DNA of 64,000 nt from Planctomycetales bacterium (GTDB lineage: Bacteria; Planctomycetota; Planctomycetia; Planctomycetales; Planctomycetaceae). The notes under the pieces were generated by a model. The model made no database searches, was not told where the DNA came from, and was given only the letters and a program-made list of their open reading frames with translations. Both the position numbers and the translations under genes were made by a program. Every line of letters begins with the position of its first letter. The stretch's first letter is position 1. Location of the stretch: NCBI GenBank assembly GCA_040877365.1, contig JBBDNU010000153.1, positions 5,049 through 69,048 on the forward strand, given 5' to 3'. Positions 49 to 55,167 of this stretch are shown in pieces.

Positions 49-2100
49 ATGACAGCCACATCCGAACGGATGGCGCGCCGGGCGACTCGCCGTGTCTCCT
101 TGAACCGCACGAGGCGTCTCATGCCCGCCCCTTGGACGAGTTGGGCCGATTCCGGTTGGCAGTCGAAGTCGGAGACGCTGTCGCTGGCGGTGCCGGTCGG
201 ACTGGCGATCCTCGACGGCCTTTCCGAGTGTCGCAGTGCCGCGACGCTATTGAAAGGTCGTCTCCCCGAGATTGCCGCCGAGTTCGGAGCCCAATGGGCG
301 GCCGTCGTCGAGCGGTCGCCCGATTGGACCGTCCTCGCGCAAGCCGGGCGGCAGGGGATCGGAGACCTTCCGACATGGTTCCTCGAGGAGGCGCTCGACC
401 GCGACGCGGCGGGTCTGACGAAGCTCGCCGCGCCGGACGGCTGGTCGCTCGTCGCCGCTCCCTTTCCCGGGAGGACGTCCCCGCCGCGGCTGCTCGCGCT
501 CGCGGGACGCGGCATGACCGTCGAAGCCGTCCCCGCCGCGCTGGTCGTGGCCCGCGTACTGGCGCGCGGCATGGAGGTGTGCGCGGACCGCGAGCGGAAC
601 GATCGGCGGCTCGACCGCTTCAAGGGGACGCTGGCGATCGCCGCCTCGATCGCCGGCGTCCACGAGACGCAGCCGCTGCTCGAGCGGATCGCCGAGGAGG
701 CGACGCGGCTGCTCGATTGCGACCGGGCGAGCATCTTCATCCGCGACAAGAGGCGTGGGCAGCTCGTGGCCTGTCCCGCCCTCGGGGTCGCGGGGAACAC
801 GCTTCGCCTGCCGGACGACGCAGGCATCGTGGGGAACGTGATCCGTTCCGGCCAGACGGTCCGCGTCGACGCCGCCTACCAGGACCCGCGGTTCAACCCG
901 GCGGTGGACAAGCAAAGCGGCTACACGACCCGGAACCTGCTCTGCGTGGCGCTGCGGAACGGCAACGGCGAAATCATCGGCGCCTTCGAGGTGATCAACC
1001 GGCACGCCGGGCCGTTCCGCGAAGAGGACGAAGAGACGCTCGAGCTGCTCGCGGGGCAGGCGGCGATCGCGATCCAGAACACGCGCGAGCGCGAGCAGCT
1101 CGTCCGCAGCCGCGAGCAGTTGGCCGAGCAGGTGACGCGCGGCGTGCGGATCATCGGCGAAAGCCCGGCGATCGTCGCCTTGCGGAAGACGATCGAGCGG
1201 CTGGCCGGGACCGATCTGCCGGTGCTCGTGCTGGGGGAGAGCGGCACGGGAAAGGAAGTCGTCAGCCAGGCGCTGCACTATCAGGGAGCGCGGGCCGAAC
1301 ACCCCTTCATCGCCGTGAACTGCGCCGCGATTCCGGAAACGCTCCTGGAAAGCGAGCTGTTCGGTCACGAGAAGGGGGCCTTCACCGACGCCCGCGAGAT
1401 GCGGCCGGGCAAGTTCGAGTTGGCGGAAGGGGGGACGCTGTTCCTCGACGAGATCGGCGACATGAGCCTCGGCGGGCAGGCGAAGCTGCTGCGGGTGCTC
1501 GAGCAGAAGGTCATCACCCGCGTCGGCGGGTCGCAGGCGATCCCGATCGACGTCCGCGTGATCGCCGCGACGAACTCGGTCCTGTCGGACCGGGTCCGTG
1601 AGAAGCAGTTCCGCGAGGACCTGTTCTACCGGCTGAGCGTGGTCACGCTCGATCTGCCGCCGTTGCGGAAGCGGCCGCAGGACATCCTGCCGCTGGCGGA
1701 ACATTTCCTGGCGCAGTTTTCGACGCAGGCCAACCGTCCGCCGCTGGAGATTTCGGACGAGGCGCGGCGGCGGCTCTTGGCGCACGAGTGGCCGGGGAAC
1801 GTCCGCGAGCTGCGGAACCTGATGGAGCGGATCGCGTTCCTCGCGCCGGGGGAGCGGGTCGAGGCGGACGACCTGGCGTTCATCCTCAGTCCGGCGGCGC
1901 CGTCGCCGTTCGAGCCGTCGCTCGACCTCGGGCTGATGGAAGCGACCCAGCGGTTCCAGACGGAGTTCATCCGCCGCGCCGTGCAGCGGGTGGGTGGGAA
2001 CATGAGCGAGGCCGCCCGCCTGATGGGCCTGCACCGCTCGAACCTGTACCGCAAGCTGCGGCAGCTGGGAATGCCCGCGCCGGAGGAGGCGCGGGAGTGA
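49..2100 (+). CDS. sigma-54-dependent transcriptional activator (unknown N-terminal sensor region + GAF + AAA+ + Fis-type HTH)
   Basis: 683-aa ORF with Walker A GESGTGKE, ELFGHEKGAFTDA loop, Walker B LFLDEIGD, WPGNVRELRN and a C-terminal HTH GGNMSEAARLMGLHRSNLYRKL. The true start may be an internal Met. Confidence 0.9.
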   Translation: MTATSERMARRATRRVSLNRTRRLMPAPWTSWADSGWQSKSETLSLAVPVGLAILDGLSECRSAATLLKGRLPEIAAEFGAQWAAVVERSPDWTVLAQAGRQGIGDLPTWFLEEALDRDAAGLTKLAAPDGWSLVAAPFPGRTSPPRLLALAGRGMTVEAVPAALVVARVLARGMEVCADRERNDRRLDRFKGTLAIAASIAGVHETQPLLERIAEEATRLLDCDRASIFIRDKRRGQLVACPALGVAGNTLRLPDDAGIVGNVIRSGQTVRVDAAYQDPRFNPAVDKQSGYTTRNLLCVALRNGNGEIIGAFEVINRHAGPFREEDEETLELLAGQAAIAIQNTREREQLVRSREQLAEQVTRGVRIIGESPAIVALRKTIERLAGTDLPVLVLGESGTGKEVVSQALHYQGARAEHPFIAVNCAAIPETLLESELFGHEKGAFTDAREMRPGKFELAEGGTLFLDEIGDMSLGGQAKLLRVLEQKVITRVGGSQAIPIDVRVIAATNSVLSDRVREKQFREDLFYRLSVVTLDLPPLRKRPQDILPLAEHFLAQFSTQANRPPLEISDEARRRLLAHEWPGNVRELRNLMERIAFLAPGERVEADDLAFILSPAAPSPFEPSLDLGLMEATQRFQTEFIRRAVQRVGGNMSEAARLMGLHRSNLYRKLRQLGMPAPEEARE

Positions 2101-2236
2101 GCGATCACGGAGTCTGTTCGAACTCAGACCCGGAGGGCATGACGCGCACTGACGCCCGTCATTCGCGTGAGGGCGGGGAATCGGACTTGCCGTGCCAGCG
2201 GAAGTCTTGCGACTTCCGCTACCGCTTCGCACCCTT

Positions 2237-3421
2237 CTACTCCGGCTTCTCCCCCCCTCGCGCCGGCCGCGCCGCGAAGTACAGCAACTGCAACAGCAGG
2301 AACAGGAACACCGGCAGGAAGACGAGCGCACGCAGGACGTTCTTCACCAGCGGCGGGAACCGGAAGCCCGCGTCGACGACCGCCAGCAGGATCACGCCGA
2401 CCAGCGTGAGGAACAGCACCCCACACCCCATCGCCGTCATCTGCGTCTTGAACACCGTCTGTTCGGAGTGCGTGCCTGAATAGAGGTCGATCGTCCGCCG
2501 CCGGCGGAGCGAGTCGCGTGCGGCGTCGACGGTTTCGCCGGCGCGGATCAGGTCTTCCCAGATGGCGTCGGTCGTCTCCCGCGGGCGGAGGCCGCGGAAG
2601 GCAGCCAACACTTGCGCCGCGTGTCCGACCTCCGAGAGCGGGCCCGCCGGTTGCAGCTCGCCCTGGATCGTCAGCCGCGCGGCGGGCGCGGCGGCGGATT
2701 TTTCCAGGACCGCCGCGCCGGCATCGCCGGCGATGGTCAGTCTCCAACCGGGCGCGGCGGCGACGGGTCGGATGGTCCACGTGGCTTCCGGCGCGCCCTT
2801 CCCGGCGAGCGTGACGAGCGCCCGCAGGCATCCCTCGGCGGTCTCGCCGGTGCGGAGGGCCGTGACCTGCGAGTAATGTCCGGCGAGAAACCGCAGCAGG
2901 TCGGCGTCGTTCACGAGCGCCCCGTCGATCTCCTCGACCGAGAGCCGGGGAGGATCCTGCCGGGTCGAGATCACGAGCCGCTCCATCTCGAGCGCTCGCG
3001 GCGGCCCGATCCGCCCCTCCGCGAGCGCCTCGCGCAATCGCCGCACGCCCGCGTCTTCTCGATGGGGAAAATACGGCATGAGGACCGCCCGCGCGTCCGC
3101 CTGCTGCAGCGCGAGCTCGTACATCCACGACGTGTCCTGCGCGGGGTGTGGCACGACGAGCAGTGGCCTTCCCGCGGCAAACAGGTGCTTGGCCGCCGTC
3201 CGCGTCGCGTCATCGCCGCCGGCGACGATCACCGCGTCGACCGCGCCGGGCGCGAGCAGATCGGCCCAGTCGTCGAGCCGCCGCACTCCCGGCGCCGCTT
3301 CGAACACGGCGGCCGGCAGCGACTCGCCGTACGCGCTCGCGAGGCGGCAGGCGGTGTCCGCGGCGATCGCCTGGAGGAGAGGGAGCGCCGCGGGCTGATG
3401 ACCGAGCAGGGCGAAATTCAT
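2237..3421 (-). CDS. Gfo/Idh/MocA-like (Rossmann-type) domain protein with C-terminal transmembrane anchor
   Basis: This is the last 394 aa of the 1180-aa ORF, starting at MNFALLGHQ. The N-terminal pattern (...VDAVIVAGG...AAKHLFAAGRPLLVVPHP) resembles the oxidoreductase N-domain but lacks a clean GxGxxG. Two hydrophobic helices sit at the C-terminus (GVLFLTLVGVILLAVV, LVFLPVFLFLLLQLLYF). The rest of the long ORF is antisense to the plus-strand genes at 3680-5599. Confidence 0.55.
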   Translation of the reverse strand: MNFALLGHQPAALPLLQAIAADTACRLASAYGESLPAAVFEAAPGVRRLDDWADLLAPGAVDAVIVAGGDDATRTAAKHLFAAGRPLLVVPHPAQDTSWMYELALQQADARAVLMPYFPHREDAGVRRLREALAEGRIGPPRALEMERLVISTRQDPPRLSVEEIDGALVNDADLLRFLAGHYSQVTALRTGETAEGCLRALVTLAGKGAPEATWTIRPVAAAPGWRLTIAGDAGAAVLEKSAAAPAARLTIQGELQPAGPLSEVGHAAQVLAAFRGLRPRETTDAIWEDLIRAGETVDAARDSLRRRRTIDLYSGTHSEQTVFKTQMTAMGCGVLFLTLVGVILLAVVDAGFRFPPLVKNVLRALVFLPVFLFLLLQLLYFAARPARGGEKPE

Positions 3422-3679
3422 GGGAATCGCGCGGCATTCTTTCCCGAAGGGACGCGAGGATGTCGCATCGCGACAAGGACTGTCGTAGCGAATCGGGCGC
3501 GCCTGCTCAAGCGTCGTCGGAGACCCTCGAGAAGTCTGCTGGTCGATCCGGCCGTTGAAATCGTCGCCGGCGGCGGCGTAGACTGAACGCGCGCCTCGAA
3601 ACAGCGCCCCGAATCGCTCTTGCGGGCCGGCGGCAAAACCGCTATCAACCCGCCTCTCTCTCGAACCCTTCCTTTCCCC

Positions 3680-4129
3680 ATGTCGTTTCGTCCCGGAGCG
3701 CAGGGATACCCGCTCGATCGGCGGGGCCGGATCGCGCTGCTCGTGTGGAGCCTGTGCCTCGTCGCCGGATTCGGCGTGGCCTGGTCCATCGATCCCGACC
3801 CCCGCGGGTTCGGGACGCACGAGCGGCTCGGCCTGCCTCCCTGCTCGTTCCAGACGATGTTCGCCATTCCCTGTCCGAGTTGCGGCATGACCACCAGTTT
3901 CTCGAATTTCGTGCGCGGCCGGTTCGTCGCCGCCTGCGAGGCGAACCTGGCGGGCTTCCTGCTCGCGGCGGCCTGCGCGATCCAGGTGCCGTGGGCGTGG
4001 TGGAGCGTGCGCCGCGGTCGGCTGTGGCAGGTCTCGCGGCCCGATCGGGCGGTGTTGTGGCTGCTGACGGTGGTGTGCGCGGTCGCCCTCTTGCAATGGC
4101 TGGTCCGACTGATGGCGGGTAACGAGTAA
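3680..4129 (+). CDS. DUF2752-like small membrane protein
   Basis: Start taken at the internal Met MSFRPG. It has the motif CSFQTMFAIPCPSCGMTTS (C-x-x-C/CPxCG type) followed by hydrophobic helices. The family name is my recollection only. Confidence 0.6.
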   Translation: MSFRPGAQGYPLDRRGRIALLVWSLCLVAGFGVAWSIDPDPRGFGTHERLGLPPCSFQTMFAIPCPSCGMTTSFSNFVRGRFVAACEANLAGFLLAAACAIQVPWAWWSVRRGRLWQVSRPDRAVLWLLTVVCAVALLQWLVRLMAGNE

Positions 4130-4195
4130 CGAGTTGCGAGTAACGAGTAACGAGTAACGAGCGATTCTCGTCACTCGCAACGCGTCACTCGTCAC
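4119..4195. repeat. heptamer array: 6 x GTAACGA-type units, then 7-nt spacer, then 4 inverted GTGACGA-type units
   Basis: Read directly: GTAACGA GTAACGA GTTGCGA GTAACGA GTAACGA GTAACGA gcgattc TCGTCAC TCGCAAC GCGTCAC TCGTCAC. It overlaps the stop codon (4127-4129) of the preceding gene. Confidence 0.85.
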
Positions 4196-4210
4196 TTCCT
4201 GGAGCGTGTC

Positions 4211-4882
4211 ATGGATGACCGCAGGCGACGATTCGCGGCCGGGCTGCTGGCCATATGCCTCCTGGCCGCCTCGCAGACGGGCTGCGCCCTGTTCGTGATG
4301 GCCGGCAAGATGTTCTTCGGCGATCCCGTCATGCCCTCGGCCTTCGAGAAGCGGACGAAGGTGAACCTCGCCAAGTCGGGCAAGAAGGTGCTCGTGATCT
4401 GCACCACGCCCCAGATCGTCAAGTCCGAGCTTCCCGCCGTCGACCACGACCTGATGGACGGCGTCTCCCGCCGGTTGCGGTGGCACGGCATCTCCGTCGT
4501 CGACCGCGATCAAGTGAGATCCTGGCTCGACGACAACGGCGGCGACTGGGGACCGCCCGAAGAGATCGCCAACCGCTGCGACGCGGACTACATCGTCCAC
4601 ATCGACCTCGAAAGCTTCGCCTTCCAGGACCGCAACAGCCCCGGTCTGATGCAGGGCCGGGTGACCGGCGTCGTGCGGGCCTACGAAGTCGAGACGATCG
4701 ACGGCGGCAAGGTCGCCACCGAAGTCTTCGAAGAGGCGATCCAGTCGACCTATCCGCAGCACAACCCGGTGTCGCAGGACCAGATATCGCCGCGGGCGTT
4801 CCAGCAGAAGTTCATGGACCGCCTCACGACGCAACTGGGGCAGATGCTGCACTCCTACCAGTACAGCGAAACCATCGAGTAA
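4211..4882 (+). CDS. lipoprotein, unknown function (paralogue of 4898-5599)
   Basis: Signal peptide with lipobox LAASQTGC. Clear similarity to the next ORF (V.V.C..P...RL..H.I.V....VR.WLD...DW..PEEI....Y....D...F). Confidence 0.75.
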   Translation: MDDRRRRFAAGLLAICLLAASQTGCALFVMAGKMFFGDPVMPSAFEKRTKVNLAKSGKKVLVICTTPQIVKSELPAVDHDLMDGVSRRLRWHGISVVDRDQVRSWLDDNGGDWGPPEEIANRCDADYIVHIDLESFAFQDRNSPGLMQGRVTGVVRAYEVETIDGGKVATEVFEEAIQSTYPQHNPVSQDQISPRAFQQKFMDRLTTQLGQMLHSYQYSETIE

Positions 4883-4897
4883 GGGGAAGGACCCGTC

Positions 4898-5599
4898 ATG
4901 GACCGCCAGACATCGAATCGGGACGACATCCGCACGGGCCGCCGCAGCTTTCTCCGCGGGACGCTCGCCGCCGCGCTGCTCCCGCTGGCCGCCGGCTGCC
5001 AGTACGTCGTGCTCGGGGGTTATCTCCTCGGCGGACGGCCGTCCTACGAGCCCCGCTTCGACGCCGAGACGAAGCGGTCGATGACCGACAAGGACGTCAC
5101 CGTCGCGGTCGTCTGCTACTTGCCCAAGGAGCACAAGTGGGATTTCCCCGGCATCGACGACGAAATCACGAAGCACGTCTGCCATCGGCTGAAGGACCAC
5201 CAGATCCAGGTGATCCGGCCCGAACACGTCCGCGCCTGGCTCGACGAGCACCCCGACTGGGACCGCCCGGAGGAGATCGGCGAAGCGTTCGGCGCGACGT
5301 ACGTGATCTATCTCGACGTGCTCGACTTCAGCCTGTACGAAGCCGGCCGCTCGAACCTCTACCGCGGGCGGTCCGAGGTCGCCGTGAAGGTGACCGCGAT
5401 GGACCCGCGCCACAAGGGGGAAGGAGAGGAAATTTACACCGCGAACCTCATCTCGAAGTATCCGCTGGAAATTCCCCGCGACACGCACGACGTGACCTAC
5501 GAGCGGTTCAAGCTCGAATACCTCGCCCGGCTGAGCGAAGAGATCGGCCGCAACTTCTATGAGCACTACGCCGGCGACGACATGTCGGACGCGACCTGA
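4898..5599 (+). CDS. lipoprotein, unknown function (paralogue of 4211-4882), Tat-like signal
   Basis: N-terminus has RRSFLRG followed by lipobox LAAGC. It is homologous to the preceding ORF over the central 100 aa. Confidence 0.75.
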   Translation: MDRQTSNRDDIRTGRRSFLRGTLAAALLPLAAGCQYVVLGGYLLGGRPSYEPRFDAETKRSMTDKDVTVAVVCYLPKEHKWDFPGIDDEITKHVCHRLKDHQIQVIRPEHVRAWLDEHPDWDRPEEIGEAFGATYVIYLDVLDFSLYEAGRSNLYRGRSEVAVKVTAMDPRHKGEGEEIYTANLISKYPLEIPRDTHDVTYERFKLEYLARLSEEIGRNFYEHYAGDDMSDAT

Positions 5600-5606
5600 G
5601 CTGGGA

Positions 5607-5634
5607 GTGACGAGTCGCGAGTGACGAGTGACGA
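5607..5634. repeat. heptamer array GTGACGA GTCGCGA GTGACGA GTGACGA
   Basis: Same 7-nt unit family as 4119-4195. It begins 8 nt after the stop codon of the second lipoprotein gene. Confidence 0.8.
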
Positions 5635-5768
5635 GCCGGCGGCGGTCCATCTTGCCGTGCGACTCGGGAGGCGGGCAGGATCGCCTCCCGGTTTGACCGA
5701 TGGATCGAGGTGCCGCATCGAAGGATCCGGCTTGCGTCCGCGGCACCAGACACCTAGACTCATTCGTG

Positions 5769-6158
5769 ATGGTTCGCACGTTTCACATTCTGCTGCTCGT
5801 CGCGGCGGTCGCCACGTGCCCGTTCCGGTGCCTCGCTCAGCCAAGGGCCGCAGGCGCGGAGGCAGGCAGTCCGCGAGGCTGCGCGTGCTGCCCTCACGAG
5901 CGGGAACAATCGCCGGCGACGCCGCAACCAGTCGATGACTGCGGTTGCCCCGATTGTCTCTGCCGCGGCGCGATCGTGGAGGAGGCGGCCGGCCTGCTGG
6001 ATGCCCGTCAGGACGTCCCGGATTTCACGTTCGTCCCGGTGCAGGTTGCCGGCGATCTCCACTGGCCGGCCCGTCGCGTCGAGGCGTCGCCGTCGCCGTT
6101 GTTCCTCATGAGTTCCGGTTGGCTGGTTCGCGTGGCGATCCAGTCGTTCCTGCTCTGA
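5769..6158 (+). CDS. small cysteine-rich protein with N-terminal hydrophobic signal-like segment
   Basis: Start taken at the internal Met MVRTFHILLLVAAVATCPFRC. Contains the cysteine clusters CACCPH and CGCPDCLCRG. No family recognised, and coding status is not certain. Confidence 0.45.
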   Translation: MVRTFHILLLVAAVATCPFRCLAQPRAAGAEAGSPRGCACCPHEREQSPATPQPVDDCGCPDCLCRGAIVEEAAGLLDARQDVPDFTFVPVQVAGDLHWPARRVEASPSPLFLMSSGWLVRVAIQSFLL

Positions 6159-6355
6159 GTTCCGCGTGGCCGGGACTGCGTTCCGGCGGCGTCTGATCCG
6201 GCGTTTGGTCGACTCCCGTCCGCGGAGTCGCGTCGAGCCGGCTTGACGCGCTCGACGACGCACGTCATCCACGGCCACTCTCCTGCGTCGAGCCGGATCG
6301 CCGGCCCGCATCGACTCTTCGATGTCTCGCGCCTCTTGGAAGGTAACGACGGTTG

Positions 6356-7525
6356 ATGTTCCAGTTTCGCCCGCTGCCCTGGGAATACGGGGTCCGCAAC
6401 CTGCTGCGGCGGCCGTCGCGGAGCGCGCTGACATTGGGAGCGCTGGCGACCGTGGTGCTGCTCGTGTTCGTCGTCGTGGGATTCATTCGCGGACTGGAAA
6501 GGTCTCTCGCCGTGAGCGGCGATCCCTCGGTGATGCTGGTTTACTCGCTGGCGGCGGAGGAGAGCATCGAGAACTCATCGATCGCCGCGCGGACCAGCGG
6601 ACTCATTTCCGCGAGTCTCGATGGAATTCAGAAGCGATTCGGCGTGACGCACGTCTCGCCGGAGCTGTATCTCGGCACCCGCGTGGCCGCCGGCGATCAG
6701 CAGCACGGCGCCCTGGGACTGGTCCGCGGCGTCACGGACGCCGTACCGCTCGTGCGGCGGCAGGTCCGGCTGGTCGATGGAACATGGCCCGGACCGGGGG
6801 AGGTTCTCGTGGGAAATCTGGCCCCGGCGAAACTCGGCTACGACCCCGAGGAATTGGCGGTGGGAAATACAGTCGCGTTCGAGGGCCGGACCTGGCCGAT
6901 CAGCGGGCGGTTCGTGGCCGGCGGCTCGGCGCTGGAATCGGAAATCTGGTGCCGCCTGCCCGACTTCCAGCAGGCGCTCAAGCGGCAGGATCTCAGCGTC
7001 GTCGCTCTGCTGCTGAAGGACGGGGCGGCCCCCGCCGAGGTGGAACTGTTCTGTGCGCGACATCGAGACCTGGGACTCAGGGCGGTCGGTGAAACTGCTT
7101 ACTACGATTCGTTGCAGAAACACTATCTGCCCGTGCGGATGGTGGCGTGGCTGGTGGTGTTTCTCGTGGCCGGGGCCGGGGTCTTCGCGGGGCTGAACAT
7201 GATGTACGGCGCGGTCGCCGGGCGCATCCGCGAGGTCGCCACGCTCCAGGCGGTCGGCTATCGCCGGCGGGCGATCCTGTTGAGCCTGATTCAAGAGGGG
7301 GCGCTGCTCTCCGCGGCGGCCTCGCTGCTGGCCGGGGTGGCCGCCCTCTGGCTGCTCAACGGCATGGCGGTCCGGTTCACGATGGGAGCATTCACGCTGC
7401 GCGTCGACAGTGCGGCGTTGTTGATCGGTTGCGGCACGGGGCTGCTGCTGGGAGTCCTGGGGGCGATCCCGCCCGCGATCAAGGCGCTCCGCCTCCCCGT
7501 GGCGGAAAGTCTGAAAGCGATTTGA
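6356..7525 (+). CDS. ABC transporter permease, FtsX/MacB type
   Basis: N-terminal TM helix, large periplasmic loop and a C-terminal 3-TM FtsX-like block ([20 protein letters not shown]...). ATG at 6356 is preceded by GGAAGG. Confidence 0.85.
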
Positions 7526-7586
7526 CGTGAGCGTCCTGCTTTCGGGACAGGTTTCGAAACCCATTTTCGACGAAGGAGTGCGGAAG

Positions 7587-8102
7587 ATGAGCGTGAAATC
7601 GTGGGGAATGATGTTGCTGACGGCGACGGCGGCGATCGGCTGCGGCGAGGCGGACCGCCAGACCGCGACGACGCCGGCCAATGGTTCCGGATCTCCGGAT
7701 GCCGCCTACGTGTTGACGGCCGAACCGACCGGTTCACTCGGCGTGGGCGAGGTGCGGAGCTCCGCTGCCGAGGACGTGACGGTCGTCGGCCGCATCGGCG
7801 GTTCGGCGCAACCGTTCGTCAACGGACTGGCGGTGTTCACGATCGTCGATCCGGCGGTCCCGTACTGCGCGGACGACGAAGGTTGCCCCACGCCCTGGGA
7901 TTACTGCTGCGCGCAGAACCAGGTCAAGGAGAACATCGCCACGGTGGAGATCGTCGATGACCGGGGTCAGCCGGTGGCGAAGGACGCGAAAGCGCTGCTG
8001 GGGGTGAAAGAACTGTCCACGGTCGTGGTGCACGGCAAGGCCCGCCGCGACGAGCAAGGCAATCTGACCGTGCTGGCCAGCAAGGTGTACGTGAAAAAAT
8101 GA
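7587..8102 (+). CDS. lipoprotein with CPTPWDYCC motif, unknown function
   Basis: GAAGGAG RBS lies 9 nt upstream of the ATG. Lipobox LTATAAIGC is present and the body looks beta-rich. The gene is embedded between the permease and HlyD genes. Confidence 0.7.
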
Positions 8103-8111
8103 CGGACTCTC

Positions 8112-9674
8112 ATGACGACTGAACTCGACCTGCGACAATTGGCGATCGATCGCCGAGAGCCGCCGAAAGCGAAGCGGCGACGCCGGCGCCTCGTCTCCCG
8201 ATACGTGCTGCCGGGAGGCATCGTGCTCGGCTTTCTGGGGATGCTCGGCTGGGCGGCCCGCGATCGGTTTCTGCCGATCAAGTCGGTGACGGTGGTGCCG
8301 GTCGTCGTCGCGCGGGCCGAGGTGCGGCGGGGGGGCGCCCCGCTGTTCCAGGCGGCCGGCTGGATCGAGCCGCGACCGACTCCGGTCCTCGTCTCGGCGC
8401 TGGCGGAAGGGGTCGTCCGGGAACTGCTGGTCGTCGAGGGCCAGGAGGTTCAGGCAGGGGAGCCGATCGCACGGCTGATCGACGTCGACGCCCGGCTGGC
8501 TCTCCAACAGGCGGAGTCCGACCTGGCCCTCCGCGCGGCGGAACTGGCCAGCGCCCAAGCCGACCTGCAGGCCGGACGATTGCGCCTGGAGCACCCCGTC
8601 CACCTGGAAGCGGCGCTGGCCGAGGCGGAATCGCGGCTCGCAAGGACCGAGACGGAACTGGCCGGAATCCCGTTCCTGATCCAAGCGGGGGCGGCGCGGG
8701 TGGCTTACGCTCGTCAAAACCTGGAAGGGAAACGGTCCGCAGGCTCGGCCGTCGCCGGGCGGCTGATTCAGCAGGCCCAAAGCGAGTACGACGGCGCCCT
8801 GGCCGAACTGAAGGAACTCGAACAGCGGCAGCCTCGTTTGCAGCGCGAAGTCGACGCGCTGCAGCGCAAGCAGCGGGCGCTCGCCGAACAGTTGCGACTG
8901 CTGATCGAGGAGAATCGGACGGTCGCCGATGGCCAGGCGCGAGTGCAGGCCGCCGAGGCCCGCCTGCGCCAGGCCCGGTTGGCGGTGGACAAGGCGCAGC
9001 TCCAATTGGAGCGGATGGTCGTCGAAGCTCCCACCTCCGGAAAAGTGCTGCAACTGATCGCCCGACCGGGCACGCGCGTGATGGGACTGGCGCCGGCTTC
9101 CGGCCAGGATGCGACCAGCGTCGTGAGTCTCTACGACCCGCACGTGCTCCAGGTGCGGGCCGACGTCCGCCTCGAAGACGTTCCCCTGCTGCAACCCGGC
9201 CAGCCGGTGCGGATCGAGACGGCCTCGTCCAGGGAGCCGCTCACGGGCAAGGTATTGTTCGCGACCTCTTCCGCCAACATTCAGAAGAACACCTTGGAAG
9301 TGAAGGTCGCCATCGACTCGCCGCCGGCAACCGTCCGGCCGGAGATGCTCGTGACGGCGACGTTCTTCGCGCCGTCTCGGCCGGAGAGCGATCCCGGCGG
9401 TTCCGAGCAGCAGCGGCTCCTGATTCCGCGGCGGCTCGCCGAGTCCGCCGGAGAGGGACACACGGTCTGGATCGCCGATGCGAGCGGCCTCGCGCGTCGA
9501 CGAAGTGTGCGGCTCGGGAAAGCCGGCACCGAGGAACTGGTGGAAGTCGTCGAAGGGCTCAGCCCGACCGACAAACTGATTTCCGGCGGCCGCGAAGGCC
9601 TGACCGACGGCGACCGGATTGCGATCGCCGGTGAAGACGCCTCGCTCGGACTGACCGCCCTGCGCGGCGGGTGA
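8112..9674 (+). CDS. HlyD-family periplasmic adaptor (membrane fusion protein)
   Basis: N-terminal TM helix, lipoyl-like hairpin ([23 protein letters not shown]), long coiled coil and C-terminal beta-barrel segments. Confidence 0.85.
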
Positions 9675-11626: not shown

Positions 11627-11682
11627 TAGCGGAATTCGCAAGAATTCGACTCGACGCGTCGGAATTCTTGCGAATTCCGCTA
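11627..11682. repeat. REP-like inverted repeat built from two copies of a 24-nt unit (TAGCGGAATTCGCAAGAATTC / GAATTCTTGCGAATTCCGCTA)
   Basis: 21-bp perfect arms (11627-11647 and 11662-11682). Each arm is itself a GGAATTC-loop-GAATTC(C) hairpin (7 bp in the right arm, 6 bp in the left). It lies 37 nt after the permease stop. The same unit recurs at 44660-44726. Confidence 0.9.
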
Positions 11683-24464: not shown

Positions 24465-24548
24465 GTAGGGTGCGTCAACGCTCTGCGCAGACGCACCGCG
24501 GAGATGGCCGGGATTGGTGCGTCCGCGCAAAGCCTTGACGCACCCTAC
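24465..24548. repeat. nested palindromic REP-like element between convergent genes
   Basis: Outer arms are GTAGGGTGCGTCAA and TTGACGCACCCTAC (14 bp, perfect). Inner arms are CGCTCTGCGCAGACGCACC and GGTGCGTCCGCGCAAAGCC (imperfect). It ends 2 nt before the stop codon of the minus-strand oxidoreductase. Confidence 0.85.
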
Positions 24549-24550
24549 GG

Positions 24551-25963
24551 CTACAACACCCTCGTCACCCCCGGCACCGCCACCGGATACTCTCCCGCGG
24601 CGTTCGGCAGGACCGGCGGGAGGGCGTTCCAGTCGTAGCTCTGCGGCATGATGCTCAACTCGCTGGCGAGCGCGTCCGCCAACTGCACTTCCTTGCCGGA
24701 GTACGTCGCCATCCGGCCGAAGATCGCCGTCATCGTCGAGAGGGCGCCGTTCTCCCCTTCGTTGTAGGGACGGTCGCTGCGGATGGCGGCGAACAGGTCG
24801 TCGTGCTCGGTCTGGTACGGGTCGTTCTTCGGGCCGCGGTAGCGCCACGCGACTCCCCTCCCTTCCAGGGAGGGGTTGGGGGAGGGTCCGCCTGCGGCGT
24901 TCGTTCCGGCCACCCTCCCCCTGCCCCCTCCCTGAGAGGGAGGGGAATAGATCGCCGAGCCGCTGATGTCCGCCGTGCCTTTCGTGCCCTGCGCGTGCTC
25001 CGAGACGCTGTTCCAGCAGCCGCGGATGTGCCGGCACTGGCTGTACATCCGCGTGCCGTCGGCATAGACGTATTCGACCGCGTGATGGTCGAAGATGTCG
25101 CCGTAGCGGGCGTCGGTGCGGACTTCGCGGCCCCCCATGCCGTAGGCGGTGACGGGATAGCTCCCCTTGAGCCAGTTGCCCACGTCGAGGTTGTGGATGT
25201 GCTGCTCGACGATGTGATCGCCGCAGAGCCAGTTGTAGTAGTACCAGTTGCGCATCTGGTACTCCATCTCGGTCTTCGTCTGCTCGCGGGTGCGGCGGGG
25301 CTCCCACACCCCGCTGCCGTTCCAGTAGCAGCGGAGGGCGACGATCTCGCCGATCGCCCCGTCGTGGAGCTGCTTCATCGTCTCGAGGTAGCTGTTCTGA
25401 TGGTGCCGCTGCAAGCCGACGCCGACCTTGAGGTTCTTCTCCTTGGCGACCTTCACCGCCTCGAGGAACTTCCGCACGCCGGGGGCGTCGGTAGCGACCG
25501 GCTTCTCGGCGAAGACGTGCTTGCCGGCCCGGACGGCGGCCTCGAAATGGATCGGCCGGAACCCGGGGGGCGTGGCGAGGATCACCAAGTCGACGCCGCT
25601 GGCGATCACCCCCTGATAGGCGTCGAACCCGGAGAAAACGTGCTCGTCGATCACCTGCACCCGCTCGGCGGCCCGCTCGCCGAGCGCCCCCTGGATCCGC
25701 CGCAGCGCCCCGCGGGCCTGGTCCTCGAAGGCGTCCCCCACCGCGACGAGTTTGACGGGACCATCGGTGGAAAGCGCCTGCACGGCCGCCCCGCTCCCGC
25801 GGCCGCCGCAGCCGATCAGCCCGACCTTGATCGTCGAGTCCTGCCCGGCATAGGCCCGCGCCGGCAGCGCGAGGCCGCCGAGCAACCCGGCCCCGACGGC
25901 GGCCTTGGTGGAGGTCGAGAGGAACTCGCGGCGGGAGGGACGAGCGGCGGGCGAATCGGACAT
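24551..25963 (-). CDS. Gfo/Idh/MocA-family oxidoreductase with Tat signal
   Basis: Tat signal SRREFLSTSTKAAVGAG. Rossmann motif IKVGLIGCGGRGSGAA and EKPVATD motif. It carries an in-frame palindromic insertion at 24855-24945. Confidence 0.9.
   Translation of the reverse strand: MSDSPAARPSRREFLSTSTKAAVGAGLLGGLALPARAYAGQDSTIKVGLIGCGGRGSGAAVQALSTDGPVKLVAVGDAFEDQARGALRRIQGALGERAAERVQVIDEHVFSGFDAYQGVIASGVDLVILATPPGFRPIHFEAAVRAGKHVFAEKPVATDAPGVRKFLEAVKVAKEKNLKVGVGLQRHHQNSYLETMKQLHDGAIGEIVALRCYWNGSGVWEPRRTREQTKTEMEYQMRNWYYYNWLCGDHIVEQHIHNLDVGNWLKGSYPVTAYGMGGREVRTDARYGDIFDHHAVEYVYADGTRMYSQCRHIRGCWNSVSEHAQGTKGTADISGSAIYSPPSQGGGRGRVAGTNAAGGPSPNPSLEGRGVAWRYRGPKNDPYQTEHDDLFAAIRSDRPYNEGENGALSTMTAIFGRMATYSGKEVQLADALASELSIMPQSYDWNALPPVLPNAAGEYPVAVPGVTRVL
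24855..24945. repeat. three consecutive GC-rich hairpins inside the oxidoreductase CDS (in-frame palindromic element)
   Basis: H1 is CCCCTCCC/GGGAGGGG (24855-24875). H2 is GGGGGAGGGT/ACCCTCCCCC (24878-24921). H3 is CCCCTCCCT/AGGGAGGGG (24925-24945). The encoded segment is ...SQGGGRGRVAGTNAAGGPSPNPSLEGRG... Confidence 0.8.
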
Positions 25964-28425: not shown

Positions 28426-28506
28426 GTGGGGCAGGCTTTCCAGCCTGCCGGGATTCACTCGCGGGGCCGCGATCACGGGGGCGGCAGACAAGGATGTCTG
28501 CCCCAC
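28426..28506. repeat. MITE/REP-like element with termini GTGGGGCAG...CTGCCCCAC (copy A)
   Basis: Contains hairpins GGCAGGC-tttcca-GCCTGCC and GGCAGACA-agg-ATGTCTGCC. It sits 1 nt from the stop codon of the FGE-type gene. A second copy is at 30338-30431. Confidence 0.85.
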
Positions 28507-29839: not shown

Positions 29840-30988
29840 ATGAGGATGATGGCGTGTCTGCTGCTGGCGGGAGCGTGCGGTGCGTTGCCGTGTGATGCGG
29901 AACCGGCCGACGCCCCGGTTGTCGAACCGGCCGCGGAGCCGGAACTCCAGCGGTTCGAGTACTTGAAGCCGCACATGGGGGTGGCGTTCGTCATTCGATT
30001 GTACGCCGCCGACGAAGCGGCGGCAAACCAGGCCGCCGAGGCCGCTTTCGCCCGGATCGCGGAACTGGACGGCATCCTCAGCGACTACGATCCCGACAGC
30101 GAGCTGATGCGATTGTGCCGCGACTCCGGACCCGGCAAACCGGTCCAGGTGAGCGAGGAGCTGGCGTACGTCCTGTCGCGGGCGCTGACGCTGGCGGAGC
30201 GGACGGACGGGGCGTTCGACGTGACGGTGGGACCGGTGGTGCGGCTGTGGCGCCGCGCGCGCCGCCGCCGCGAAATGCCCGACGCTGCCGCGCTCGCCGA
30301 GGCCCGCGCGCTCGTCGGCTGGAAGAACGTCAGGCTCGTGGGGCAGGCTTTCCAGCCTGCCGTCGGGGAAAGCTCGGGCAACCGCGCCAGGCAGACAAGC
30401 CACACAAGGCAGACAGTAATGTCTGCCCCACGGGTCGAGCTGCTCAAACCAGGGATGCGGCTCGACCTGGGAGGGATCGCCAAGGGCTACGCCGGGGACG
30501 AGGCGCTCCGCGTGCTTCGCGCGCACGGCATTGGCCGCGCCCTCATCGACGGCGGCGGCGACATCGTCGTGGGAGATCCGCCTCCCGGCCGCGAGGGCTG
30601 GCGGATCGGCGTTGCCCCGCTCGAGAAGCCGGATGGCCCCCCGAGCCGGCATCTCATCCTCGCCAACCAGTCGGTCGCCACGTCGGGGGACGCCTTTCAA
30701 CACGTCGAGATCGCCGGCACGCGATACTCGCACATCGTCGATCCGAAGACGGGCCTCGGCCTCACGAGCCGCTCGAGCGTGACGGTGATCGCCCCGGCCG
30801 GCATCGACGCCGACGCCCTCGCCTCCGCGGTGAGCGTGCTCGGGCCGGAAAAGGGCATCGCGCTCATCGACGCCACGCCCGGCGCGGCGGCGCTCGTCGT
30901 CCAGGTGGAAGAGGGAAAGCCGCGGACGTTCGCGTCGAAGAAGCTGTCGCGGTTCGAGGAATCGACGGATGAGGAAAACGGGCGATGA
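29840..30988 (+). CDS. apbE: FAD:protein FMN transferase (ApbE family)
   Basis: Signal/lipoprotein-like N-terminus. ApbE motifs FDVTVGP and LDLGGIAKGYAGD. An in-frame element is inserted just before the LDLGGIAKGY block. Confidence 0.9.
   Translation: MRMMACLLLAGACGALPCDAEPADAPVVEPAAEPELQRFEYLKPHMGVAFVIRLYAADEAAANQAAEAAFARIAELDGILSDYDPDSELMRLCRDSGPGKPVQVSEELAYVLSRALTLAERTDGAFDVTVGPVVRLWRRARRRREMPDAAALAEARALVGWKNVRLVGQAFQPAVGESSGNRARQTSHTRQTVMSAPRVELLKPGMRLDLGGIAKGYAGDEALRVLRAHGIGRALIDGGGDIVVGDPPPGREGWRIGVAPLEKPDGPPSRHLILANQSVATSGDAFQHVEIAGTRYSHIVDPKTGLGLTSRSSVTVIAPAGIDADALASAVSVLGPEKGIALIDATPGAAALVVQVEEGKPRTFASKKLSRFEESTDEENGR
30338..30431. repeat. MITE/REP-like element GTGGGGCAG...CTGCCCCAC (copy B) inside the apbE CDS
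   Basis: Same termini and hairpins as 28426-28506 (GGCAGGC-tttcca-GCCTGCC and GGCAGAC-agtaat-GTCTGCC). It encodes VGQAFQPAVGESSGNRARQTSHTRQTVMSAP. Confidence 0.85.
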
Positions 30989-31036: not shown

Positions 31037-31282
31037 ATGAATGTCAACGTCGAACCGGAGCTGGAGGACTTCGTTCGCGAACTGCTCAGCGACGGCACGT
31101 TTCGTGACGAATCCGAAGTCGTCAACGCCGCATTGCGGCTTCTTGGGAGGCGCGCCGGACTTCGTGAGGAACTGGCAACCGCACTGGCACAGTGCGAGCG
31201 CGGAGAGCTGATCGAAGAGGACGTGCTGTTCGCGGAGCTGCGCAAGCGCGTCTTAAGCCGTGGGGTCGATCGGGAAGCCTGA
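31037..31282 (+). CDS. parD: ParD-family ribbon-helix-helix antitoxin
   Basis: 81 aa. MNVNVEPELEDFVRELLSDGTFRDESEVVNAALRLLGRR matches the ParD/COG3609 N-terminal pattern as I recall it. The stop overlaps the next start (TGATG). Confidence 0.8.
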   Translation: MNVNVEPELEDFVRELLSDGTFRDESEVVNAALRLLGRRAGLREELATALAQCERGELIEEDVLFAELRKRVLSRGVDREA

Positions 31283-32040
31283 TGGTGCCCGATCGTCGCT
31301 CTCATCGCGGGCAGCATCCCGAGGACGCGGCGGCCTTCGCGCCCGCCGCACGGCCCGCGCTGCGGCGGGCGGCGGGCGATCTGTGCTGGCTGCTCGACCG
31401 CGGGTACGCTATCCCCTCGTCGCTGAAGCTCGTCGGCGACCGTTTCGGCCTCACGCAGCGGCAGCGGATCGCCGTCAATCGCTGCGCCTGTTCCGGGAAA
31501 CAACTGGAACGCCGCCTCGCGACGCGCGTCGAACCGGCGACGCTCGCGAACAGTTACGTGCTCATCGACGGCTACAACCTGCTGACGACGATCGAGGCGG
31601 CGCTGGCCGGCGGAATCGTGCTCGCCGGCCGCGACGGTTGCTATCGCGACATGGCGAGCATGCACGGCAGCTACCGCAAGGTGGCCGAAACGCTCCCGGC
31701 GATCCGGCTCATCGGCGAGGTTCTCGCGGAAGTCCGCCCGCGGGAGTGCCGCTGGCTGCTCGACCGTCCCGTGTCGAACAGCGGCCGGCTCAAGACCCTG
31801 CTGCGCGAATCGGCAGTCGAGGCCGGTTGGAATTGGGCGATCGACCTCGTCGCCGATCCCGACGCGCTGCTTGCGAGCGCCGCCGACCCGATCGTCGTCA
31901 CCGCGGACAGCGGGATCCTCGACCGTTGCGGCGCGTGGTTGAACCTCGCGCGGCTTGCAATCGACGCGCGAATTCCGGACGCTGTGGTCGTCGATCTGGC
32001 GCCCGATCCTCCAGGGACCCGCCACTCCGCCGGAGAATGA
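31282..32040 (+). CDS. DUF434-like N-domain + NYN/YacP-like (PIN-like) predicted nuclease domain
   Basis: 252 aa. LLDRGYAIPSSLKLVGDRFGLTQRQRIAVNR resembles DUF434. YVLIDGYNLL plus VVTADSGILD resemble the YacP/NYN DGYN...TSD pattern. Both family assignments are from memory. Confidence 0.65.
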   Translation: MVPDRRSHRGQHPEDAAAFAPAARPALRRAAGDLCWLLDRGYAIPSSLKLVGDRFGLTQRQRIAVNRCACSGKQLERRLATRVEPATLANSYVLIDGYNLLTTIEAALAGGIVLAGRDGCYRDMASMHGSYRKVAETLPAIRLIGEVLAEVRPRECRWLLDRPVSNSGRLKTLLRESAVEAGWNWAIDLVADPDALLASAADPIVVTADSGILDRCGAWLNLARLAIDARIPDAVVVDLAPDPPGTRHSAGE

Positions 32041-44631: not shown

Positions 44632-44659
44632 GAGGATTCGAGAGAGCGCCTTCGAATTC

Positions 44660-44726
44660 GTAGCGGAAGTCGCAAGACTTCCGATCGCACGCAACACAGT
44701 GTCGGAATTCTTGCGAATTCCGCTAC
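44660..44726. repeat. REP-like pair: GTAGCGGAAGTCGCAAGACTTCCG ... CGGAATTCTTGCGAATTCCGCTAC
   Basis: Second locus of the 24-nt unit seen at 11627-11682. It starts 29 nt after the ispH stop. The left copy carries the T>G and A>C pair that keeps the GGAAGTC-GCAA-GACTTCC hairpin. Confidence 0.9.
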
Positions 44727-44799
44727 CACTACCACGAAGTTCCCTGGAAGGCCGCCTTCGCGGGAAATGCCGACGCCGGCAGCGTCGGCTACGGTCGAT

Positions 44800-46243: not shown

Positions 46244-46366
46244 CAGTACTTCCAAGTTCGCGACGGCGGGTCATGCCCGCGAAGGCGGGCATCCAGCGGC
46301 GGCGCGAAGGGCAGGCTGGATTCCCGCCCGCGCGGGAATGACGGAGTCTCGTTCTTGGAAGTACTG
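46244..46366. repeat. MITE-like 123-bp element with perfect 13-bp terminal inverted repeats CAGTACTTCCAAG / CTTGGAAGTACTG
   Basis: Internal hairpins are ATGCCCGC-gaag-GCGGGCAT and ATTCCCGC-ccgc-GCGGGAAT. It starts 2 nt upstream of the annotated murD start. Confidence 0.8.
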
Positions 46367-48897: not shown

Positions 48898-48929
48898 GAA
48901 GAATCCTCGGCGTCGATCGTCTCGCCGCT

Positions 48930-48994
48930 CTTCGCGGCCTTCGCGTCCTTCTGTTCCGCGTCCAGTCGAACAGAAGCACGCGAAGGTCGCGAAG
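48930..48994. repeat. inverted repeat CTTCGCGGCCTTCGCGT ... ACGCGAAGGTCGCGAAG (16/17) with a third direct copy at 49065-49085
   Basis: Read directly from the sequence. It starts 33 nt after the SSS transporter stop. Confidence 0.75.
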
Positions 48995-49167
48995 ACGAGC
49001 GCGTCGTCGCCCGGAGCGCCGCTGGCGTGTCCTGATTTTCTTCGTGCCTTCGAGGTATTCGTCTTCGTCCTTCGCGGCTTCGCGTGATCCCTTGGTTGCG
49101 GCTCCGCCGCGCTGGGCAATCCGTGGATGTGGATGAATCCCGGACAACCGGACCAGACGACGACAAA

Positions 49168-53610: not shown

Positions 53611-55167
53611 ATGATGGGCAAGCCCACCGGGTTCAAGGAGTTCGCGCGGCAGCAGCCGGGTGAGCGCGATCCGCGATTGCGGGTTCTCGATTGGAACGAG
53701 TTCCACGAGCATCTGCCCGTGGAGGATCTCCGCGCGCAAGGGGCGCGGTGCATGGATTGCGGCGTGCCGTTCTGTCACACCGGCGATCTGATGGCCAACA
53801 TGGCCGCCGGCTGCCCGCTGCACAATCTGATCCCCGAGTGGAACGACCTCGTCTACCGCGACCGCTGGCGCGAGGCGCTCGACCGGCTGCATAAGACGAA
53901 TAATTTCCCCGAGTTCACCGGCCGCGTCTGCCCCGCTCCGTGCGAAGGCTCCTGCGTCCTGGGGATCATCGAGCCGCCGGTGGCGATCAAGACGATCGAA
54001 GCCGCCATCGCCGACCGCGGCTTCGAGGAAGGCTGGATCGCGCCGCAGCCGCCGGAGCGGCGCACGGGAAAGAAGGTCGCGGTCGTCGGCAGCGGGCCGG
54101 CGGGACTCGCCGCCGCGGCCCAGCTCAACGCGGCGGGGCATTTCGTCACCGTGTACGAGCGGTCGGACCGCATCGGCGGGTTGCTGATGTACGGGATCCC
54201 GAACATGAAGCTCGACAAGTCCCTCGTCCAAAGGCGGGTCGATCTGCTCGCCGGGGAGGGGGTCGAATTCATGACCAATTCGGCCATCGGCGCGGACCTG
54301 CCGGTGGAGCGGCTCCAGCGCGAGTTCGACGCGATCGTCCTGTGCACGGGGGCGACGCGGCCCCGCGACCTTCCGCTCCCCGGCCGCGACCTCGCCGGCG
54401 TGCGTTTCGCGATGGAGTTCCTCCACGCGAACACGAAGCGGCTCCTTGACGTAGGGTGGGCTGCGCCCACCAACGGCGAAAACGCTGGCGATGACGCTTC
54501 AGCGACCCGGACGCTCGAAGCGTCCGGGTCGCTTGGCCCGTTCATCTCCGCGAAGGACAAGGACGTGATCGTCATCGGCGGGGGCGATACCGGGACCGAC
54601 TGCCTCGGCACGTCGCTGCGGCACGGCTGCCGGAGCCTCGTCAATTTCGAGATCGTCCCCCGCCCGCCGGACGAGCGGGCCGCGAACAACCCGTGGCCGC
54701 AGTGGCCTCGCGTGTTCCGCGTCGATTACGGCCACGAGGAGGCGCGGGCGAAATTCGGCGACGACCCGCGCGAGTTCTGCGTCGAGACGCTCGAGTTCCT
54801 CGACGACGGCAGCGGCCGCGTGTGCGGCGTGAAGACCTGCGAGGTGGACTGGAACCGCGTGACCGAGGGCGGCCCTCCCTTCACCCGCCTGCCCGGGACC
54901 GAGCGGATCTGGCCGGCCGATCTCGTGCTCCTGGCGATGGGCTTCCTCGGCCCGGAGCCGGCCGTGGCGGAGCAACTCGGCCTCCAACTCGACCTGCGGA
55001 GCAACTACGCCGCGGAGTACGGTCGCTACGCGACGAACGTGCCGGGCGTGTTCGCGGCCGGGGACTGCCGCCGCGGCCAAAGCCTCGTCGTGTGGGCGAT
55101 CCACGAAGGCCGCGAAGCGGCCCGCGAGTGCGACCGTTATCTGATGGGCGCGACGCGGCTGCCCTGA
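53611..55167 (+). CDS. gltD: glutamate synthase small subunit (NADPH)
   Basis: [33 protein letters not shown] and [11 protein letters not shown]. It carries an in-frame palindromic insertion at 54451-54540. Confidence 0.95.
54451..54540. repeat. palindromic element inside the gltD CDS
   Basis: Hairpins GGTGGGC-tgc-GCCCACC (54455-54471) and GCGACCCGGACGCT-cga-AGCGTCCGGGTCGC (54502-54532, 14-bp perfect stem). It encodes [30 protein letters not shown]. Confidence 0.8.

Follow-up and report, generated by a model that had tools for sequence, protein, structure and literature searches.

An in-frame palindromic insertion in a Planctomycetaceae oxidoreductase gene, probably one copy of a REP/REPIN-like repeat

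Palindromic repeats lying in frame within protein-coding genes have their textbook case in the Rickettsia palindromic elements (RPEs), reportedly described by Ogata and colleagues in 2000. GC clusters and double-hairpin elements of fungal mitochondria are said to have been described by Paquin, Laforest and Lang in the same year. Coding palindromes also occur in the mitochondria of Nematomorpha (PMC6649704). In bacteria, repetitive extragenic palindromes (REPs) and their dimers are found wholly within open reading frames (ORFs), encoding 20-30 aa, in many phyla including Opitutus of the Planctomycetes-Verrucomicrobia-Chlamydiae superphylum; the genes that host these intragenic REPs are enriched in replication, repair and tRNA synthetase classes, and Planctomycetes have GTAG repeats (Di Nocera et al. 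2013, BMC Genomics 14:522, PMC3733652). Here, a 95-nt palindromic element is described from a 64-kb window (the whole stretch of DNA analysed, 64,000 nucleotides of contig JBBDNU010000153.1, assembly GCA_040877365.1) of a Planctomycetaceae metagenome-assembled genome (MAG; 67% G+C, described as free-living). The element lies within the gene of a predicted periplasmic Gfo/Idh/MocA oxidoreductase, where it is an insertion relative to the orthologues, and it is probably one copy of a multi-copy repeat resembling REPs and their hairpin-forming doublets (REPINs).

The perfect stems that an earlier note on this DNA had placed at 24855-24945 were present exactly as described, and the 470-aa minus-strand ORF (24551-25963) runs through them unbroken, reading ...SGSAIYSPPSQGGGRGRVAGTNAAGGPSPNPSLEGRGVAWRYRGPKNDPY... 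across the element as that note had quoted. Its reading of the product as an oxidoreductase exported by the twin-arginine translocation (Tat) pathway agrees with a Pfam match and a Tat motif at the N-terminus of the protein (Table 1). Among 5.8 billion proteins searched, 8000 homologues were retrieved, and lengths among the best 120 of them ranged from 433 to 463 aa. When 11 homologues were read residue by residue, the alignment check that the note had proposed came out in its favour, as the insert was gapped entirely in 10 of them and the remaining one, P0058, had three residues of its own (PSK); the loop at the insert site differs in length among other homologues, of which P0058 is an example. 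The nearest homologue (P0002, from a Planctomycetaceae MAG, 89% identity) has exactly 28 aa (84 nt) fewer at this site. At the nucleotide level, 102 nt separate the flanking Ile and Trp codons in the window versus 18 nt in the orthologous locus L001 of a sister MAG (GCA_040877445.1), a net gain of 84 nt by which the frame is kept. The repeat measures 95 nt, so that one of its junctions lost 11 nt of host codon sequence. Only the in-frame outcome of the insertion event is visible.

The G+C content at third codon positions (GC3) was 0.74 in the insert and 0.92-0.93 in the host gene; the value of the insert, not adapted to the codon usage of the gene (0.93), suggests a recent arrival. Relative to the L001 orthologue, the ratio of nonsynonymous to synonymous substitution rates (dN/dS) was 0.14 for the whole gene, 0.12 N-terminal and 0.13 C-terminal of the insert, which shows purifying selection on both sides. 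So far as its sequence tells, the oxidoreductase gene with its insert would still be a working gene.

The element is built of two inverted units around a short spacer (Table 1). The 35-nt unit has the architecture CT-CCCCTCCCT-n3-AGGGAGGGG-n2-GGGGGAGGGT (consensus ctCCCCTCCCTgnaAGGGAGGGGctgGGGGtGGGt; general form CT-CCCCTCCCT-n3-AGGGAGGGG-n2-GGGGG[T/A]GGGT), which gives two perfect 9-bp stems CCCCTCCCT/AGGGAGGGG with an n3 loop (24855-24875 and 24925-24945) and a perfect 10-bp stem GGGGGAGGGT/ACCCTCCCCC in which 24878-24887 pairs with 24912-24921. The window contains this hairpin pattern two times, whereas 100 shuffles give an expectation of 0.00. The earlier note had read these stems as three back-to-back hairpins; the stems are perfect, as it said, and the arrangement is better described as an inverted dimer of the 35-nt unit folding as one nested hairpin. 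As the three palindromes are nested, the full-length strand prefers one long three-segment hairpin (-82.9 kcal/mol) over three separate ones (-59.1). For a 111-nt stretch spanning the element, the RNA fold of -82.9 kcal/mol had a z-score of -6.9, with none of 200 shuffles as good, and the DNA fold a z-score of -6.1.

The limits of the units were read from Logan contigs of two sediment metagenomes containing the window (X1 and X2), aligned to the region. Loose contig ends pile up at 24852, 24887/8, 24912 and 24945/6 and therefore delimit two units of about 35 nt. In agreement with Table 1, a search with the unit model (nhmmer) matched 24851-24895 on the plus strand and 24910-24953 on the minus strand, and found only this one copy of the CCCCTCCCT-type element in the window. 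The 24-nt spacer was matched over its full length nowhere in 2.5 Mb of related loci. Against Rfam, an E-value scan of the region and a gathering-threshold scan of the window and six loci returned only sub-threshold miRNA-like hairpin matches and one tRNA elsewhere, and no family matched the element. The G-rich half of the element contains four G3 tracts with short loops, and a G-quadruplex potential of this purine half remains, weaker than the hairpin. A mirror-repeat or triplex reading of the same half was dropped: its core GGGAGGG is itself symmetric, so that a direct repeat accounts for the apparent mirror symmetry.

Table 1. Positions of the element, its host gene and other palindromic elements in the window, and copies of the unit lying in frame in other genes, whose hosts were confirmed by Pfam or PDB alignment (L numbers designate loci outside the window).
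Feature	Position or locus	Strand	Basis or remark
Host gene: 470-aa Gfo/Idh/MocA oxidoreductase, twin-arginine signal SRREFL	24551-25963	-	ORF; Pfam PF01408 (GFO_IDH_MocA) match
Extra-loop codons, residues about 341-371 (PPSQGGGRGRVAGTNAAGGPSPNPSLEGRGV)	24851-24943	-	Alignment gap; +84 nt; pLDDT; GC3
Entire 95-nt palindrome, made of left unit, spacer and right unit	24853-24947		Contig ends; foot dinucleotides; unit-model matches
Left 35-nt unit: CT, hairpin CCCCTCCCT-TCC-AGGGAGGGG (24855-24875), TT, GGGGGAGGGT (24878-24887)	24853-24887	+	
24-nt spacer, particular to this copy or genome	24888-24911		Depth near that of the flanks
Right unit, inverted copy: ACCCTCCCCC (24912-24921), TGC, hairpin CCCCTCCCT-GAG-AGGGAGGGG (24925-24945), AA	24912-24947	-	
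GTAG-tagged inverted dimer GTAGGGTGCGTCAA...TTGACGCACCCTAC, different family	24465-24548		33-nt arms, 91% complementary
In-frame palindromic element, different from that above, in the ApbE gene (FAD:protein FMN transferase, 29840-30988)	30337-30432	+	Inverted repeat I13
ApbE-type element, intergenic sister copy immediately 3' of the FGE-sulfatase gene	28426-28506		Inverted repeat I15, same arms
Third palindromic element, in frame in GltD (gene 53611-55167)	54451-54540	+	Starts with GTAGGGTGGGC
In-frame unit in PriA	L051		Prevotellaceae
In-frame unit in MgsA/RarA	L044		Planctomycetota
In-frame unit in M16 peptidase	L013		Prevotellaceae
In-frame unit in GlyS	L054		Sphingosinicella
In-frame unit in AddB-like protein	L034		Lacipirellulaceae
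In-frame single unit in terminase large subunit, linker between N- and C-terminal domains	L139 2137-2180		IMG/VR viral contig
In-frame unit in LeuRS	L057		Sphingomonas; 38 residues where PDB 7nua has 8

At the protein level, the insert lies between a strand at residues 337-339 and the conserved WRY at 373 and is modelled as a coil between two strands. The AlphaFold2 model (65 sequences) had a mean predicted local distance difference test score (pLDDT) of 84.9 and a predicted template modelling score (pTM) of 0.83, with most 10-residue blocks above 90, and residues 341-370 scored 47-57 without secondary structure. The insert is thus predicted to form a disordered surface loop, matching the earlier note's expectation in that the model places it as low-confidence coil between strands of a confident fold. 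Most likely, the approximately 30 inserted residues are translated; a tryptic peptide within them would be VAGTNAAGGPSPNPSLEGR. We infer that the loop is most likely tolerated in this disordered form and not selected for any function.

Repetition of the element was examined through contig depth. In X1, the summed depth reached 5000-8200 over the arms (5000-7900 for the left unit) against about 320 in the flanks, and in X2 2000-4900 against about 70, so that the arms lay at 10-70 times the flank depth across the two metagenomes, with the spacer near flank depth in both. Other contigs at host-like depth (277, 308 and 322 in X1; 61, 66, 68 and 73 in X2) carried an arm or a diverged full-length copy, and the host genome very probably holds several more copies of the unit. 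The repeat, on whose recurrence the earlier note had made its interpretation depend, is multi-copy in the metagenomes that contain the window. This bears on the possibility that a lineage-specific low-complexity loop grew in place by slippage or duplication, its palindromy being incidental. Such growth would suit a loop that is variable among orthologues, but these metagenomes contain the same 35-nt arms at many further sites, and so do over 300 loci elsewhere, with conserved boundaries; the idea is already contradicted by the multi-copy evidence and retains almost no probability.

The same contigs speak to a repeat-induced assembly chimera having placed the repeat inside the gene. Logan unitigs do break within the arms, as expected at repeats; however, an identical protein occurs on two contigs, one of them in an NCBI MAG (contig JBBEEE010000176.1 of GCA_040880955.1), unitigs at host depth enter the arms from both flanks (X1 records 1 and 4), the spacer is covered by exact unitigs (X2 records 15 and 16), and the reading frame is intact. 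A single contig links the flanks with no element between them, and it comes from a different organism: its depth of 11.8 versus 310 and its identity of about 89% identify it as an L001-type relative and not as an empty allele. An assembly artefact is therefore considered extremely improbable.

Outside the window, with one genome per species scanned, the bare hairpin was found at at least 120 genome loci, and viral contigs held at least 119 further loci; a stricter Planctomycete-type pattern recovered 78 metagenome loci. The G-run n2-GGGG(G)[T/A]GGGT, an extension that the hairpin search pattern did not include, lay next to 69% of the hairpins but was present at only 0.5% of positions taken at random from the same loci. 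The 118 elements at genome loci comprised 78 single units and 40 inverted dimers, 34 of these having the hairpins outside, as in the window, and 6 (mostly Prevotella) the G-runs outside. The loop triplets of the two arms of a dimer are mutually complementary, so that the whole dimer forms one long palindrome, and across 31 dimers the foot dinucleotides CT...AG/AA were conserved and nothing else was conserved outside the hairpins.

By their record titles, the carriers include many Sphingomonas isolates, Prevotella and other Bacteroidales MAGs, Desulfococcaceae, Gammaproteobacteria, Phycisphaerae, Planctomycetia, Gemmataceae, Isosphaeraceae, Anaerolineae, Dehalococcoidia and an Actinomycetota MAG. 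The 35-nt unit occurs in Sphingomonadales, Bacteroidales, Planctomycetota, Chloroflexota, Actinomycetota, Desulfobacterota, Gammaproteobacteria and IMG/VR contigs, and its sharing across phyla and viral contigs is established. In Sphingomonas faeni-like DNA runs, the arms reached about 7-300 times the flank depth, and in Logan contigs of Sphingomonas relatives an unrelated 30-nt spacer replaced 157 nt. A Sphingomonas-type element had no BLAST match among the PLSDB plasmids, an outcome for which the low-complexity filter is probably responsible. Searches of the literature returned no description of a CCCCTCCCT-type unit, which is no proof that none exists: matches for CCCCTCCCT/AGGGAGGGG and for PSLKGRG-like peptides were only human promoter or triplex papers and one unrelated paper, and nothing specific was found on REPINs and REP-associated tyrosine transposases (RAYTs) with Sphingomonas. 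Separately, a contig labelled Acidovorax delafieldii (L099, 640-754) carries a dimer of the Sphingomonas subtype, which may reflect contamination or transfer.

As the copy in the window lies within a gene, the placement of the other copies was assessed from an open frame together with a signal of GC3 over second-position G+C (GC3-GC2) on both sides of each copy. At least 90% of testable copies lay outside a coding frame; most copies are intergenic, and the intergenic ones sit mostly just 3' of genes. For example, L119 has copies in the nusG-rplK-rplA spacers, and L029 in the 5' leader of a DEAD-box helicase gene. About 13 of about 250 testable copies (about 5-8%) were in frame. Because these other in-frame copies sit in real genes (Table 1), the element in the window belongs to a recurring in-frame class, and since one unit lies within a terminase, the family also occurs inside phage (or gene-transfer-agent-like) genes. 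Three units in the same orientation, 62 nt apart, were also noticed in a 2339-aa ORF of a Planctomycetales MAG (L070, 6787-6954), where their translation gives PPPSQGGxGGGSQPSPVGGLN repeats; a tandem array of the unit may here have become a stretch of repeat protein.

The position of the intergenic copies, mostly just 3' of genes, a site at which REPs are believed to affect mRNA (PMC3733652), raises the possibility that the segment in the oxidoreductase gene is kept for a function, either as an RNA or DNA structure (ribosome slowing, transcription stop, mRNA half-life) or as a useful loop. The stability of the hairpin (-82.9 kcal/mol) and the four closely spaced G3 tracts of the G-rich half would suit such a role. 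On the other hand, no aligned orthologue carries the insert, including the one at 89% identity, its GC3 has not adjusted to that of the gene, no Rfam family matches it, the encoded loop is predicted to be disordered, and similar units occupy unrelated positions in unrelated genes. Retention for function is accordingly judged unlikely.

Concerning the mode of insertion, a target-site duplication was absent beyond the shuffled control in 31 dimers (longest flank repeats of length 0, 2, 3 and 4 in proportions of 0.13, 0.55, 0.26 and 0.06, against 0.17, 0.46, 0.28 and 0.07 in shuffled flanks). This result counts against a classical MITE (miniature inverted-repeat transposable element), i.e. a deletion derivative of a DDE-type insertion sequence moved via its terminal inverted repeats, although the arms could be taken as terminal inverted repeats of about 35 nt around a variable core, in a dispersed, multi-copy family. 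Head-to-head and tail-to-tail arrangements both occur, single units are common (78 versus 40 pairs), and the intervals examined, between unit pairs 0.2-5 kb apart, showed ordinary genes (patatin-like, ParB-like, NmrA/HxlR, rplK-rplA) and no larger element carrying a transposase between its arms. A MITE origin therefore appears very unlikely. Taken together, the palindromic unit, the inverted dimers, the high copy number, the extragenic bias and the lack of duplication argue against a DDE-type MITE and are best fitted by single-strand mobilisation of the REP/REPIN type.

The genomic surroundings of the units were also inspected for a mobilising gene. Clustering of the ORFs within 2 kb of the units gave only shared prophage-type genes (e.g. 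terminase-like), and a tblastn search of all loci with E. coli RayT and a RAYT from L001 matched only L001 itself. This RAYT gene (L001 11336-12195; 178 aa; Pfam Y1_Tnp, 24.7 bits for a cut-off of 23) lies directly downstream of the orthologous oxidoreductase gene, is flanked on both sides by CGTTCCCAAGC...GCTTGGGAACG / CGAAGCTCCGCTTCG dimers, and is absent from the corresponding position of the window. Orthologues with 72-77% identity in other Planctomycetaceae (L320, L329 and L331) were flanked by the CGTTCCCAAGC..GCTTGGGAACG REP, and the flanks of the RAYT orthologues P0144 and P0228 carried a different REP and no CCCCTCCCT unit. REPIN-RAYT systems thus exist in the clade of the host.

Other palindromes are frequent in the window, where the GC3 gene map placed about 11 palindromic elements of at least five families, three of them in frame inside enzymes (Table 1). 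The two further in-frame cases that the earlier note had named were borne out, as the element in ApbE accounts for 27 residues where PDB 4xdt has 5, and that in GltD for 27 residues where B. subtilis GltD (PDB 7mfm_I) has 4. The ApbE element and its intergenic sister share the sequence GTGGGGCAGGCTTTCCAGCCTGCC...GGCAGACA..TGTCTGCCCCAC, and the GTAG-tagged dimer starts 2-3 nt past the stop codon of the host oxidoreductase gene. Further intergenic palindromic repeats were noted at 2197-2223, 11627-11682 and 44637-44749, and at 4119-4195, 46244-46366 and 48918-49006; among the intergenic repeats are the GTAGCGGAATTCGCAAGAATTC family, with three copies in the window including a perfect 21-nt inverted repeat at 11627-11682, and a palindrome built of GTAACGAG heptamers. 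Near the ApbE gene, 31276-31812 encodes a 179-aa protein with DUF434 and DUF5616.

Considered as a whole, the observations at the oxidoreductase locus are probably best explained by one copy of a multi-copy, non-autonomous, REP/REPIN-like palindromic repeat, made of two inverted 35-nt units and a short spacer. This copy would have landed in the codons of a short variable loop in the C-terminal domain of the periplasmic oxidoreductase, replacing 11 nt of host sequence. Being built of C/T runs and G/A runs, the unit has no stop codons, and it would read as a Gly/Pro/Ser/Arg-rich segment of about 30 residues, presumably translated and tolerated as a disordered loop without selection for function. 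A hairpin-recognising single-strand HUH/Y1 (RAYT-like) enzyme may move the element in trans, a step that is proposed only tentatively.

Several points weigh against this explanation. A 95-nt element with a net gain of 84 nt is not a clean cut-and-paste product. No RNA run containing the host gene was found, and the copy number in the host is based on contig depth, not on an assembled genome. The unit lacks a GTAG or CGTC tag and has a CT...AG foot instead, and it is common to many phyla and viral contigs, whereas the REPINs so far described are lineage-specific and vertically inherited. Finally, neither a RAYT nor another transposase was found in 2.5 Mb around about 400 units, and the one orthogroup of RAYTs that was examined goes with another REP.

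The sharing of the unit across phyla and viruses was unexpected and is the more consequential part of the results. Behind it there may be a single mobile family that spread horizontally; convergence on a stop-free hairpin sequence is the less plausible alternative. A broader proposal is that of a single, as yet undescribed, pan-bacterial palindromic family, spread horizontally through at least six phyla, possibly on phages, inserting without target-site duplication through a mobilising enzyme not so far connected with it, and able to colonise essential genes in frame by virtue of its run composition (stop-free outside the loops, Pro/Ser/Leu/Gly/Arg/Glu-type residues, G-quadruplex-prone). This proposal is regarded as doubtful; if true, it would contradict the view of REP-type repeats as lineage-bound and vertically inherited. 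Should the copies belong to one mobile family and not be a product of convergence, the questions would arise of which enzyme moves the unit and how such repeats cross lineages. More generally, in-frame palindromic repeats illustrate how proteins can be lengthened by selfish DNA and yet not be destroyed, and they mark insertion-tolerant loops. In MAG annotation, inserts of this kind make proteins longer and can pass for lineage-specific domains or assembly errors.

Among described systems, REPs and REPINs (PMC3733652; Bertels & Rainey 2011, PMC3116915) are like the present repeat in consisting of a short G+C-rich palindromic unit of high copy number, often arranged as inverted pairs with a short spacer between them, in leaving no target-site duplication, and in lying mostly between genes near their 3' ends, with a minority wholly inside ORFs where dimers encode 20-30 aa. 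The classes of host genes (replication, repair and tRNA synthetases) are also the same, being represented here by PriA, RarA, AddB-like, LeuRS and GlyS. In contrast, each unit of the present repeat combines a hairpin with a neighbouring G-run whose sole pairing is with the other unit, and no cognate RAYT was found in the loci searched. The repeat therefore agrees with REPs and REPINs in palindromic copy number, inverted dimers and extragenic placement without duplication, and departs from them in tag and lineage specificity.

MITEs such as the Neisseria Correia elements (Delihas 2008, PMC2229807; review PMC10969869) are likewise small and non-autonomous, with terminal inverted repeats, and lie both between and inside genes; however, they derive from DDE insertion sequences and leave target-site duplications, and here neither a duplication nor a parent insertion sequence was found. 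The mitochondrial GC clusters, double hairpins and coding palindromes are similar as G+C-rich hairpins that spread within a genome and can be in frame, but they belong to organelle genomes and are unrelated in sequence, so that the likeness is one of analogy only.

With RPEs, the element shares a length of about 100 nt, palindromy and an in-frame position in a functional gene; in RPEs the added peptide is thought to lie on the protein surface, and here the ORF with its insert stays intact and constrained and structure prediction puts the insert in a surface loop. The hosts differ, an obligate intracellular alphaproteobacterium versus a free-living Planctomycetaceae MAG with 67% G+C, for which membership of the RPE family is not expected, and most members of the CCCCTCCCT-unit family are intergenic. 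The earlier note had proposed an RPE-like phenomenon in a distant high-GC lineage: the in-frame insertion is supported, and its occurrence outside Rickettsia is correct but not new, having already been reported by Di Nocera et al. (2013; PMC3733652). In-frame insertion as such is thus a known phenomenon, to which the CCCCTCCCT-type unit adds another case, and the oxidoreductase gene provides a clean example of it in a free-living, high-G+C Planctomycete, documented by filled and empty sites, by a structure model and by evidence on copy number.

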